Notes under the pieces: model-generated
Database searches by the model: none
What the model was told of the DNA's origin: nothing
The model's input: only the letters and a program-made list of their open reading frames with translations
In this document: positions 41,685 to 64,000 of the stretch, one piece after another
How positions within the stretch are numbered: position 1 is the first letter of the stretch
Layout: each line of letters opens with the position of its first letter
Program-made: the position numbers and the translations under genes
IMG/VR virus record: IMGVR_UViG_2897328257_000003
Strand: one strand, 5' to 3'
Length of the DNA: 64,000 nucleotides
Source: a virus
Lineage: Duplodnaviria; Heunggongvirae; Uroviricota; Caudoviricetes

Positions 41685-41932
41685 GTTAAGCATCCACAGG
41701 CTGGTATCTGCAACCGATTATAACGGATGCTTAACGTAATGCGTGAAGTATGGACATATTTTATCAATTAGTGTTTTTTGCCGTTTCATAATGTTTCAGG
41801 TTGTGCGTTATGTTTTTGATTATAAACAGATTTGTGATTTTTCTTGTTCCAGCTTGTTTCACGTTGTAGCCCTTTGTGCAACGATCGGTGTAGTTAATGG
41901 TGTAGTTAATTGTGATGACCGGATTCAAAATT

Positions 41933-43162
41933 ATGAGCAGAGCACTTAACAAACTGAGCGATACACAGCTGAGGAAAATCAACGGCACACCCGCCCAAAA
42001 AACAGCCTTTCTTAATGACGGTGGAAACCTGAGCGTCAGGCATTCAACCAGTGGCCTTTTAACCTGGTATTTCACTTACAGGGCCGGAACGGGAAGGGGG
42101 GCACCACCGGAACGCATTAAGCTGGGAAATTATCCTGATCTGAGCCTGAAATCAGCCAGGGAAAAAGCCGCCCAGTGTCGCGCATGGCTGGCAGAGGGGA
42201 AAAATCCACGTCATGAAATGAATTACACCGTACAGGAAGCGTTAAAGCCGGTAACGGTTGGCGATGCGCTCACCTACTGGCTTGAGTCGTACGCAAAGGA
42301 AAACCGTGTGGATTATGACCCACTGAAAAAGCGGCTAAATAATCACGTAATACAGCACATTGGCCCTATGCCGCTGGATAAATGCGAGCTACGGCACTGG
42401 CTGGCCTGTTTTGATCGGGTGGCAAAGAAAGCCCCTGTTTCCGCCGGGTTCCTGCTACAGACATGCAAGCAGGCGCTTAAGTTCTGCAGGAAGCGGCGCT
42501 ATGCAATCAGCAACGTTCTTGATGATATGAGTGTGGCGGACGTTGGGAAAAAACCGGATATAAGTGAGCGTGTCTTAAGTAACAAAGAACTTGGCGAATT
42601 ATTGCAGGCACTGGACAAAAAAATATTTTCCCCTTACTACGTCGCACTAATCCGCCTCCTGATTGTTTTCGGATGCCGGACAGTAGAACTGAGGTTATCG
42701 GAGATCGGCGAGTGGGATTTTACCGAAATGCTCTGGACCGTTCCGAAGGAGCACAGCAAAACGAAGGTAGCCATATTCCGGCCCATACCGGAAGCGATAC
42801 TGCCGTTCGTCACGCAGCTGGTGGAGCAGAACAGGCACACGGGCTTATTGCTGGGGGAAGTGAAACAGGAAACCAGCGTATCGCAGTACGGCAGATTAGC
42901 GCACAGGAGGCTAAAACACCCTCAATGGTCATTGCATGACATCCGGCGCACCTTTACAACCATGCTGAACGATTTAGGCGTTGATCCTCACGTCGTGGAG
43001 CAGCTTACAGGTCATCAGATGCCAGGGATGCAACGAGTCTATAACCACTCCCGTTATCTCGATGCGAAACGTGATGCGCTGGATATGTGGACGGAGCGGT
43101 TAGGAATACTGGCGGGAACACATGAAAACGTAACCACGCTACCAGTAACCAGAATAAAATAA
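41933..43162 (+). CDS. int: Tyrosine recombinase/integrase, P4-like (N-terminal arm-binding domain plus catalytic core)
   Basis: About 410 aa; C-terminal catalytic motifs (HDIRRTF...; LTGHQM...YNHSRYL) typical of phage integrases; start refined to MSRALNKL; six-frame ORF starts at 41912. Confidence 0.88.
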   Translation: MSRALNKLSDTQLRKINGTPAQKTAFLNDGGNLSVRHSTSGLLTWYFTYRAGTGRGAPPERIKLGNYPDLSLKSAREKAAQCRAWLAEGKNPRHEMNYTVQEALKPVTVGDALTYWLESYAKENRVDYDPLKKRLNNHVIQHIGPMPLDKCELRHWLACFDRVAKKAPVSAGFLLQTCKQALKFCRKRRYAISNVLDDMSVADVGKKPDISERVLSNKELGELLQALDKKIFSPYYVALIRLLIVFGCRTVELRLSEIGEWDFTEMLWTVPKEHSKTKVAIFRPIPEAILPFVTQLVEQNRHTGLLLGEVKQETSVSQYGRLAHRRLKHPQWSLHDIRRTFTTMLNDLGVDPHVVEQLTGHQMPGMQRVYNHSRYLDAKRDALDMWTERLGILAGTHENVTTLPVTRIK

Positions 43163-43388
43163 TTTTTTTCGTGTTTTTTCAGTATGCGCATACTGGATAA
43201 GTGCACAGATACAACGTGAAACAATGTGCAACAACGTGACANNNNNNNNNNNATACTGGCGGGAACACATGAAAACGTAACCACGCTACCAGTAACCAGA
43301 ATAAAATAATTTTTTTCGTGTTTTTTCAGTATGCGCATACTGGATAAGTGCACAGATACAACGTGAAACAATGTGCAACAACGTGACA
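43106..43388. other. Scaffold-join artifact: the same 136 bp (int 3' end and downstream) on both sides of an 11-N gap
   Basis: 43106-43241 is identical to 43253-43388, separated by N 43242-43252; typical of unmerged overlapping contig ends. Confidence 0.8.
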
Positions 43389-43683
43389 CAATCACGAACA
43401 AGAGGCCAAAAAGAATACAGATTTGTAAGTTACTGATTTTCAATGCTCAGCTGGTTTTTTATACATTAGTGAATTACGCGTTAAAGCGTGCGAAAAAAGG
43501 CATAAAACAAGATTTTATGCCTTTGTATTAACATGAATTTAAATGATTTTATCCTGATTATTCCTCTTTCTGTAAACCATGCGACACCAACATTTGCCAA
43601 CTCTGAATCATCCTGACACAATCAGACACATCCCAACGCAATAGAACACGAAATAACTCTTTAAGAAACGAAAGGGGGCAATA

Positions 43684-43872
43684 GTGTTAAGCACTGATCG
43701 GTTTATACGTGAAAAAGAATGCGAAAAGCTAACAGGCCTTAGCCGCTCATGCCGCTACCGCCTGGAAAAGGCCGGACAATTCCCATCACGTCGTAAACTT
43801 GGTGGGCGTTCTGTTGGCTGGTCTTTATCTGAGGTTTTGGCCTGGAAGGATAGCTGCAAGGCAGTTCACTAA
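43684..43872 (+). CDS. alpA: AlpA-family phage transcriptional regulator (excisionase-like HTH)
   Basis: 62 aa, GTG start with strong SD (aaagggggcaataGTG); pattern ...LTGLSRS..YRL...G.FP....LG.RSVGW..SEV..W resembles AlpA/Xis family proteins. Confidence 0.78.
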   Translation: MLSTDRFIREKECEKLTGLSRSCRYRLEKAGQFPSRRKLGGRSVGWSLSEVLAWKDSCKAVH

Positions 43873-44212
43873 AAAGACTGGCGGCACACAGTCGCCACAC
43901 ATCCACTAATACAGAGATATAACTATGAAGATTGAATATGCGCCCGAACGTGGGCGGGGATTCGTTCGCCCTGGTGAAACTGAAAAACAACAAAATTGGG
44001 GTTTTTCAGGCATAAAAAAAGCGGCCCCGATATGGAGCCGCCTTTCTGAACAATTAACCTGCTGCGCCTTATGTGTATGTGATCCCAAACATAAGCACGG
44101 GAATGATAGCCGCTATCAGGCTGGTGGGCAATTACCTTGCTTGTTGGGGCCGTATTGTGCTGCCATTTTCATCCGTTCAGAACGTGAATATTTTTTTAGA
44201 AACTCATCAAGG

Positions 44213-62531: not shown

Positions 62532-63074
62532 ATGAAATCGCACCTGATGAACAAAAAAAACATGGCGAAAAGCTGCCGTGTAAGTGCGACAGCGTTCGAC
62601 AAGTGGGGAGTGACACCCGTTGAACGTAAAGGCCGTGAGGCGTTTTATGATGTTGCCAGCGTGATAGACAATAGGGTTAACAATGCAATTAGCCAGCTTA
62701 CAAACGACAAAGTCGAGATTGATGATGATGAACTCTTACGAGTCAGGATCAGATTACTGACAGCACAGGCGGAGGCGCAGGAACTTAAAAACGAGCGCGA
62801 TCGCGGTGACGTGATTGATACAGAGTTTTGCATGTACGCGCTTTCAAAACTGGCAAGTCAGATTTCTTCAATCATGGACAGCCTCCCGCTTACTATGCAA
62901 AGGAACTTCCCACAGATGCCCCCCGCTATGCTGCATGGGCTTAAGAGGGAAGTAGTTAAAGCCTGTAATGCCAGTGCCAGAGTTGCCGACAACCTCCCAC
63001 AGATACTTGCTGATTACCTGAACGAAACAACCGGAAACGTACCGGAAAAGTTGCTACAGAAGAAAGGCGAGTAA
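62532..63074 (+). CDS. Terminase small subunit, lambda Nu1-like (divergent N-terminal DNA-binding region, conserved C-terminal region)
   Basis: About 180 aa; C-terminal half resembles lambda Nu1 (LTAQAEAQELKNERDRGDVIDTEFCMYALSKLASQISSIMDSLPLTMQRNFPQ); N-terminal HTH region divergent; lies directly downstream of cos1 as in lambda. Start could be 62520, 62532 or 62547. Confidence 0.78.
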   Translation: MKSHLMNKKNMAKSCRVSATAFDKWGVTPVERKGREAFYDVASVIDNRVNNAISQLTNDKVEIDDDELLRVRIRLLTAQAEAQELKNERDRGDVIDTEFCMYALSKLASQISSIMDSLPLTMQRNFPQMPPAMLHGLKREVVKACNASARVADNLPQILADYLNETTGNVPEKLLQKKGE

Positions 63075-63300
63075 CAGACGCGCAATTATTGAACAAAAAT
63101 GAGAAAGGATCTGATAATGGCATTTTCTGGCTAAAATGCCTCGTGTCAGATCCTTTCTTTTTTTAATATTTTCATTGTTAAACAGTCTGTTACAGAGAAG
63201 AAGAACGGATCTGACTTTTGCCGGAAAATTTTCATAAACAGATAAAATCCGCGAGGTCGCCGCCCCGTAACGGGCCATAATTCCAGGAAGGACCCGACGA
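63075..63300 (-). promoter_or_regulatory. Lambda-type cos site 2 in inverted orientation, with lambda-like cosQ, cosN and cosB (R3/I1/palindrome)
   Basis: Minus-strand reading: cgggtccttcc...cgttacggggcggcgacctcgcggattttatctgtttatgaaaattttccgg...ccgttcttcttc...aaaagaaaggatctgaca...tgtcagatcctttc, colinear with lambda cos 1-190 as remembered; cosN complement AGGTCGCCGCCC at 63254-63265. Confidence 0.7.
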
Positions 63301-63329
63301 CACCAGGCTATCAGAACGATGGGGGCACA

Positions 63330-63611
63330 ATGACAGAAGCCGAACTACTGCGATTAATCCGCCGCGTTACCGGAATCAGCCAGCAGCATGACGAACAGGG
63401 CACGCAACCGGACAGCGTGACCGCTGAAAATTATGCGCGTGTTGTTGCTGAGGTGATGCGCCGTGATGGTATTGAGCTTAACGGCGTGGATATGCGCAAC
63501 ATACGAACCAGAGTCCTTGAGTTGCTGGCATACCGTCGCCGCGTGGAGATGTATCGGGAGAAGGAGAAAATCACGTACCACTGGAAGAAGCCGGAACGGT
63601 TGCGGCGGTAA
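63330..63611 (+). CDS. Conserved hypothetical 93-aa protein (homolog of 55738-56019)
   Basis: SD gatggggg; near-colinear with island-1 copy. Confidence 0.6.
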   Translation: MTEAELLRLIRRVTGISQQHDEQGTQPDSVTAENYARVVAEVMRRDGIELNGVDMRNIRTRVLELLAYRRRVEMYREKEKITYHWKKPERLRR

Positions 63612-63820
63612 CTCACTGAGATTAAAGCAAAGCTCAAAATTGCGCTGGCTGAATGATCATTATGATTACTTATGTTTACGCAGATGATTAAGGCCTAAAC
63701 CGTTGATTATTCCACAATCCCCCATTGGGGGAAGCTGGCGGTAACTGGTTGAACTTAAAGCAAAGCGCAAAATTGCGCTGGCTGAATAATCATTATGATT
63801 ACGCAGATGATTAAGGAATG
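63600..63820. repeat. Two direct repeats of about 80 bp flanking a CCCCCATTGGGGG palindrome
   Basis: Unit cggcggtaact...ttaaagcaaagc.caaaattgcgctggctgaat.atcattatgatta...cgcagatgattaagg at 63600-63695 and 63733-63815; motifs shared with island-1 right end. Confidence 0.55.
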
Positions 63821-64000
63821 ACCGAAGGCGGAAATTCGCCTGTGGTTGATGGGGGAGTTGCAGATCTGCAACTCGACCATGAAATTACGGAAACTACCCG
63901 TAGTTTGGGTAGTAAGAGCAACACCCAGATTTTGGGGCTTACTCGTGATACCCAAATTTGGGGTATCGGCGGCAACCATAACGACTTTCGTTACGGTTGA
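63818..64000 (+). CDS. Hypothetical 60-aa ORF overlapping a repeat-rich region; coding status doubtful
   Basis: Six-frame ORF; region contains palindromic motifs (ctacccgtagtttgggtag, cccagattttgggg, cccaaatttgggg), so it may be non-coding. Confidence 0.2.
   Translation: MTEGGNSPVVDGGVADLQLDHEITETTRSLGSKSNTQILGLTRDTQIWGIGGNHNDFRYG

Follow-up and report, generated by a model that had tools for sequence, protein, structure and literature searches.

A tandem of two phage satellites in the genome record of Escherichia coli strain 646 is very probably a reference-guided scaffolding misjoin

Two satellites recorded between roxA and phoQ

The 64,000-nt viral stretch IMGVR_UViG_2897328257_000003 (the window in what follows) carries two different phage satellites one after the other next to the Escherichia coli gene roxA: a capsid-forming phage-inducible chromosomal island (cf-PICI; island 1) and the contig of a cos-type phage-inducible chromosomal island (PICI) resembling EcCICFT073 (island 2). 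A first-pass annotation made from the letters of the window had described them as a tandem array with a shared backbone at the roxA-proximal locus. The backbone and module pattern that it reported was recovered here, but the tandem was not: the arrangement is very probably a misjoin made by reference-guided scaffolding, in which the EcCICFT073-like contig was placed between the body of the cf-PICI and that element's own right arm.

Sequence letters start at 36270 and end at 64000, while positions 1-36269 are all N. The left flank (potB-potA-pepT-roxA) is that of E. coli, with 98.7-99.3% identity to K-12, and it leads into the features listed in Table 1. The 10-mer GGACATATTT found at the left edge of island 1 also adjoins the phoQ stop codon. 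Island 1 has the backbone by which cf-PICIs are recognised, i.e. a tyrosine integrase, AlpA (the alpA product matches the AlpA/excisionase-regulator PHROG) and a primase with an adjacent iteron origin, together with a head and packaging set made up of major capsid protein, protease, portal, connectors, TerS and TerL, plus an HNH protein. The gene list contains no tail or lysis genes for it, att direct repeats flank it, and it measures about 15 kb after removal of island 2. The same element stands alone between roxA and phoQ in the closed genomes CE10 and OkiPb01697. Every cf-PICI feature that can be looked for in sequence is present, and on that footing island 1 is a standard EcCIEDL933-type cf-PICI at roxA-phoQ.

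Island 2 carries a primase/replicase with an iteron origin, what appear from exact matches to be two lambda-type cosN sites, and homologues of the capsid (c1499) and decoration (c1500) proteins without portal, protease or TerL. Its contig begins at the Icd-like gene and contains neither integrase nor alpA, both of which are present in complete relatives.

Pairwise comparison of the islands agreed with the first-pass description of what they have in common and of where they part. The control-proximal region (44838-45023 vs 56445-56630) is 98.9% identical, the SSB/PerC-like cluster (48225-49046 vs 59549-60373) 92.2%, and the 93-aa open reading frame (ORF; 55738-56021 vs 63330-63613) 88%. In contrast, the primases give only patchy matches (68-78%), the iterons are built from different units (TCTACC-type in island 1, GGTGAACAGT-type in island 2), and the packaging modules are unrelated, no match being found between them in this comparison. 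Domain matches and the exact cosN 12-mers likewise bear out the distinction drawn there between an HK97-type head with TerS/TerL and a lambda gpE/gpD set with cos and a Nu1-like protein. Two different satellites are thus present, as had been claimed, and their demands on a helper phage are probably not the same.

Table 1 Features of the roxA-phoQ region of the window. Positions beyond 64000 are window-equivalent positions in the source record.
Feature	Position	Strand	Remarks
attL core GGACATATTT, att site of the phoQ 3' end	41752-41761	+	homology to the empty K-12 roxA-phoQ locus stops at 41761
Tyrosine integrase, phoQ-site type	41933-43162	+	Arm-DNA-bind_3 and Phage_integrase domains
N run (11 N)	43242-43252		join, not a true gap; exact 136-bp duplicate in the flanks (43106-43241 and 43253-43388)
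Control-region contig	43253-44212	+	alpA at 43684-43872 and small leftward ORFs
N run (623 N)	44213-44835		follows the control-region contig
Island 1 body	44836-56433	+	same element in closed genomes CE10 and OkiPb01697
Island 1 Icd-like ORF	44857-45153
Island 1 DUF4222	45760-46059
Island 1 D5-type primase	46056-47804		D5_N, DUF5906 and Pox_D5 domains
Island 1 iterons	47812-48049		TCTACC-type repeat units
Island 1 SSB	48402-48812
Island 1 HK97-type capsid	49338-50540		Phage_capsid domain
Island 1 S78 protease	50580-51152		Peptidase_S78 domain
Island 1 portal	51154-52365		Phage_portal domain
Island 1 connectors (two)	52320-52993		Phage_HCP and Phage_connect_1
Island 1 HNH	52993-53433		HNH domain
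Island 1 P27-type TerS	53723-54079		Terminase_4 domain
Island 1 TerL	54063-55724		TerL ATPase and nuclease domains
Island 1 93-aa ORF	55738-56019
N run (11 N)	56434-56444		join of island 1 and island 2 contigs; flanks non-overlapping, no complete-genome support
Island 2 contig	56445-64000	+	continues to 64320; 7.9 kb
Island 2 Icd-like ORF	56464-56763
Island 2 106-aa ORF	56756-57076
Island 2 DUF4222	57083-57382
Island 2 D5-type primase	57379-59196
Island 2 iterons	59190-59433		GGTGAACAGT-type repeat units
Island 2 81-aa ORF	59484-59729
Island 2 SSB	59726-60136
Island 2 PerC-like ORF	~60147-60395
Island 2 68-aa ORF	60650-60856
Island 2 lambda-E-like capsid	60856-61911		Phage_cap_E, 4.7e-51
Island 2 gpD-like decoration protein	61923-62258		HDPD, 1.8e-17
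Island 2 cosN GGGCGGCGACCT	62387-62398	+	exact lambda 12-mer
Island 2 Nu1-like TerS	62532-63074		180 aa, full length
Island 2 inverted cosN GGGCGGCGACCT	63254-63265	-	exact lambda 12-mer
Island 2 93-aa ORF	63330-63611
attR core GGACATATTT matching attL	64575-64584		outside the window; 10-bp core at both ends

Source record and assembly

The window corresponds to GenBank CP023200.1 (E. coli strain 646, GCA_002290225.1, 5,320,632 bp), with 0 mismatches over 16,622 overlapping nucleotides, N runs included; it was the single record found in an exact-protein search with the island-2 primase. We rejected the possibility that the N runs had been introduced into the window by masking, because they recur at identical positions in the GenBank record; CP023200.1 also has a third 11-N run just past the window end, at window-equivalent 64321-64331. 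The block of N at 1-36269 could be a gap whose size was estimated by Ragout from a reference (e.g. for a prophage present in that reference), or else padding or masking.

Strain 646 was sequenced on an Illumina NextSeq only, and its CLC and Edena contigs were merged via CISA into 179 contigs, which were then "rearranged using Ragout" (PMC5814501). Ragout is a reference-assisted scaffolder that orders contigs by synteny to reference genomes. Since CP023200.1 is an Illumina-only draft ordered in this way, its contig order derives from other genomes and not from strain 646. The record has a chromosome-type accession but is a Ragout-ordered short-read draft in which the positions of mobile elements should not be trusted, and other "tandem" or otherwise odd arrangements of mobile elements in it and in the sibling record CP023201 merit the same suspicion.

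The junction between the islands

Among 5,426 complete E. coli genomes, none contains the junction region 55300-57600 as a contiguous sequence. The join itself consists of 11 N only. No integrase or att site lies between the islands, the cf-PICI contig stopping about 250 bp short of its att with the Icd-like region coming next, so that the hybrid att and second integrase expected of a tandem array are both missing, and the att cores of the two elements differ. The comparison with the empty K-12 locus that the first-pass annotation had proposed brought out the phoQ-type core. A longer, 9.9-kb query spanning the junction had matches with at least 80% coverage in 63 genomes; the one that was inspected has a single cf-PICI at tqsA with an island-2-type replication module, and from this one genome the matches appear to reflect module shuffling and not colinear tandems.

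The sequence on either side of island 2 belongs together. The last letters of the cf-PICI contig are ...TTAACCGG, and beyond the third 11-N run the next contig starts with AAAAAAATCCGG...; when island 2 (56445 to ~64320) is removed, 55300-56433 and the phoQ contig form a single 2,382-nt alignment to the closed genome NZ_AP042583.1 at 99.66% identity. The joined sequence runs straight into phoQ, and its only difference at the join is A7 vs A8. Because the joined flanks align as one segment, the island-2 contig interrupts an otherwise seamless canonical element.

The ends of island 2 point elsewhere. On the right, it finishes in the tqsA-type core ATAACAGC (its terminal 8 nt match the tqsA core), as opposed to the phoQ-type core GGACATATTT that flanks the cf-PICI. 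The right arm has 98.7-100% identity to elements integrated at tqsA (98.7% to that of JNEC-KY172) and about 75% to phoQ-type arms. In a spread sample drawn from the 215 closed genomes with hits, all matches reaching the last base of this arm were located at the 5' fragment of tqsA. On the left, the contigs that begin at 44836 and 56445 have homologous starting points no more than 2 bp apart, and their first 128 nt are identical. A comparable situation is seen at the 11-N run 43242-43252, where the 136-bp duplicate represents two overlapping, unmerged contig ends that border a collapsed repeat on its left. Taken together, the 136-bp overlap and the 128-nt shared start are what is expected if a two-copy repeat was collapsed and the unique contigs reach into it by approximately one read length. 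The control region matches a cf-PICI of one closed genome at 99.7% and a tqsA PICI of another at 99.6%, and the stretch from 43106 to ~44963 is probably a two-copy repeat common to both satellites that was assembled once.

The following course of events would account for the record. A control region of about 2 kb (the 3' end of int, alpA and small ORFs), at least 99% identical in the two satellites, would have been collapsed to one contig, and synteny to references with an EcCICFT073-type PICI at roxA-phoQ would then have drawn the island-2 contig to this position. EcCICFT073 itself is located at roxA-phoQ, as is a TerS-type PICI of RM10466. The position of EcCICFT073, together with the 95% identity of its capsid/decoration region to that of island 2, offers a plausible reason for the reference-guided placement. 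The real layout at the locus would be roxA-attL-int-alpA...TerL-93aa-attR-phoQ, i.e. one intact cf-PICI at the 3' end of phoQ. A precedent for one control module at two loci is given by the closed genome RM10466, whose two PICIs, at tqsA and at roxA-phoQ, have identical AlpA-region proteins.

The case resembles Ragout-type misjoins in its fixed-length N fillers, in its unmerged overlapping ends and in the placement of a repeat-bounded mobile-element contig by the synteny of other strains. Nothing in it departs from them, this being an ordinary failure mode for multi-copy mobile elements. A misjoin, which the first-pass annotation had itself named as the finding that would speak against a tandem, is thus what the sequence evidence indicates, as far as such evidence reaches without reads.

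Alternative arrangements

Several points weigh against a misjoin of the kind described. For strain 646, both the tqsA position of island 2 and the way in which Ragout would have misplaced its contig are inferred. A search for homologues of the tqsA-type integrase yielded no entry attributable to CP023200.1. Two contig ends do not coincide with an obvious repeat boundary: that of island 2 falls part-way through the 9-bp att core, before any unique tqsA sequence, and that of the cf-PICI lies in a hairpin with an A run, AACCGG-A7-TCCGGT (56415-56433 and the next contig; A8 in the closed relative). The runs of 11 N we take to be the filler that Ragout inserts at joins of unknown distance, a usage for which we found no published statement. 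Finally, PICIs and cf-PICIs share this att site (bioRxiv 10.1101/2022.09.08.507074), which makes a tandem possible in principle. As for the break between the cf-PICI and phoQ contigs, the idea that it marks the edge of a CFT073 synteny block was considered and rejected: a sensitive blastn search places that edge ~96 nt (CFT073) or ~370 nt (RM10466) upstream of the break.

Three other arrangements were weighed. Island 2 might have been misplaced in the record and yet lie at a locus other than tqsA, either at a secondary site or beside another mobile element. Such a location might account for a contig that ends in the 9-bp core without any unique tqsA sequence, and in E. coli the attB sites of cf-PICIs and PICIs number at least six (bioRxiv 10.1101/2022.09.08.507074). 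We consider it unlikely, given that every sampled closed-genome copy of the right arm is at tqsA and that the terminal 8 nt agree with the tqsA core. It is less likely still that the islands form a true integrase-mediated tandem in the reverse order (roxA-int1-control-island 2-att-int2-control-cf-PICI-phoQ), whose bodies were swapped by the scaffolder. Both bodies do leave the same collapsed repeat, and the assembly cannot tell which of them follows the roxA-linked integrase; RM10466, moreover, has a lambda-type TerS PICI at roxA-phoQ. The arm and core of island 2 are however of the tqsA type and misfit a phoQ-type integrase, the scaffold has no second integrase contig at the locus, and the integrase and cf-PICI arrangement of the window matches closed genomes at 99%. 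Least credible of all is that the scaffold order is real, with an integrase-less cos-PICI fragment lodged between the body and the right arm of the cf-PICI (e.g. through homologous recombination) as a genuine composite or tandem: the stretches of 88-99% identity common to both elements could support recombination, the att site is shared between PICIs and cf-PICIs, and the post-processing of SatelliteFinder has a step for tandem satellites (PMC10085698), but the two junctions are non-overlapping 11-N joins that fall outside the shared stretches, island 2 begins at the repeat-exit point and finishes in a tqsA-type core, a seamless canonical element reappears once it is taken out, the junction is absent from all closed genomes searched, and the contig order came from Ragout and not from reads.

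Relation to known satellites

With the misjoin as the preferred explanation, each island can be compared with its own family. Island 1 resembles EcCIEDL933, the prototype cf-PICI (bioRxiv 10.1101/2022.09.08.507074; family model in PMC10085698), in its size of ~15 kb, in an int-alpA-pri/rep backbone common to classical E. coli PICIs, in a complete HK97-type head and packaging set with no tail or lysis genes, and in an att site also used by classical PICIs. It appears to differ from it only in alleles and modules. Its replication module is a mosaic, with 87% identity to that of OkiPb01697 and a closer relation to that of CE10. The phoQ-site integrase (41933-43162) and the tqsA-site integrase of JNEC-KY172 (4759-5988 of the locus compared) have 89% protein identity (365 of 409 residues), most of the differences lying in the arm-binding region at the N terminus and around residues ~120-200 (core-binding). 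This pattern suggests that att specificity was switched recently within one integrase lineage.

Island 2 resembles EcCICFT073, the prototype Gram-negative cos PICI (PMC6092414, PMC6739421), in the order of its genes (PerC-like, 68-aa, E-like or c1499, gpD-like or c1500, terminal 93-aa gene), in the 95% DNA identity of the capsid/decoration region mentioned above, and in having two lambda-type cosN sites and no portal, TerL, tail or lysis genes; EcCICFT073 also carries two cos sites (PMC6092414). Three differences separate it from the prototype. At its right end, both arm and core belong to the tqsA type, whereas EcCICFT073 sits at roxA-phoQ; it has lost a 137-aa ORF located 3' of the decoration gene; and, as its one departure in a defining feature, it has a 180-aa Nu1-family TerS where EcCICFT073 has RppA. 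The island-2 protein shows no significant similarity to RppA (E = 1.3), and a lambda-like prophage has a TerS with 33% identity to it along the full length. RppA (144 aa) matches only the N-terminal winged helix-turn-helix of the TerS profile, the island-2 protein being a full-length Nu1-family TerS. A sequence search of the PDB with the latter returned nothing useful.

The closest complete relative of island 2 is the element of JNEC-KY172 (NZ_AP045168.1), with 96-97% identity over nearly all of the island. For the right arm of island 2, the best of the sampled matches is in RM10466 (NZ_CP028381.1), at 100% over 463 nt. The tqsA PICIs of these two genomes share the TerS protein family and the cos position with island 2. 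In contrast to it, they are complete elements that include int and alpA and have their two att junctions within tqsA, and that of RM10466 has a DUF927 replication module; the island 2 of strain 646 is known only as an integrase-less contig.

A full-length Nu1-type TerS at the position of RppA was also observed in lambda-E/D PICIs of many closed E. coli genomes, and no experimental study of this TerS-for-Rpp variant was found in the PICI literature examined. This replacement in lambda-type cos PICIs, common in closed genomes, is the one modest lead.

The lost 137-aa ORF corresponds to a 350-bp deletion. The missing sequence would lie at 62259-62290 of island 2 and is present in JNEC-KY172 (13556-13906 of the locus compared), RM10466 and CFT073. 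The deletion takes nearly all of this conserved ORF, and its edges share a 9-bp overlap. The ORF belongs to phrog_1999 and weakly matches (1.8e-08) the C-terminal portion of a head-maturation-protease family; it may encode a Nu3-like scaffold.

Module exchange

Closed genomes combine att/integrase, replication and packaging modules in many ways. With att/integrase modules of the phoQ type, a cf head is found with a 582-aa primase in CE10, a lambda E/D/TerS set with a RepA helicase in one RM10466 element, and a lambda E/D/Rpp set in CFT073. With those of the tqsA type, an island-2-type 605-aa primase accompanies a cf head in 88_1577 and a lambda E/D/TerS set in JNEC-KY172, and the other RM10466 element has a DUF927 primase with lambda E/D/TerS. 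Read from these combinations, modular exchange is real. The first-pass annotation was correct in proposing it, but it had already been published as the basis for defining cf-PICIs: these are defined by an int/alpA/rep backbone and att sites held in common with classical PICIs (Alqurainy et al., bioRxiv 10.1101/2022.09.08.507074), with 4 of 6 attB sites common to the two groups in that study. Co-residence of a PICI and a cf-PICI was counted in 47 genomes by de Sousa et al. 2023 (PMC10085698), whose SatelliteFinder includes the handling of tandems. The biology of the window therefore adds nothing beyond the published families, backbone sharing, att sharing and co-residence.

Proposed life cycles

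The steps proposed here are all drawn from the literature on the two families (PMC6092414, PMC6739421, bioRxiv 10.1101/2022.09.08.507074). Induction of a helper phage would lead to AlpA-dependent de-repression of both satellites, each of which would replicate with a primase and an iteron origin of its own. The cf-PICI would build small HK97-type capsids and package itself with its own HNH, TerS and TerL, borrowing only the tails of the helper. The cos PICI would instead depend on a lambda-like helper for capsid, portal and TerL, its own Nu1-type TerS steering packaging to its own cos. In EcCICFT073-type elements, Rpp retargets the helper TerS as an Rpp-TerS heterodimer (PMC6739421). The island-2 TerS would replace this mechanism, probably by binding the island cosB and recruiting the helper TerL via its C-terminal half. 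For strain 646 as a whole, we tentatively propose, as a possibility we hold with less than even confidence, that both satellites are held at two loci with a near-identical AlpA module, such that one helper cue would fire both, and that a full-length TerS replaces Rpp and recruits the helper TerL to the island's own cos.

A separate observation concerns the two lambda-E/D/TerS PICIs of RM10466. AlpA and the adjacent small proteins are identical in the two elements, while their replication modules differ (DUF927 primase vs RepA helicase), which makes this pair a natural example of two satellites driven by one control module.

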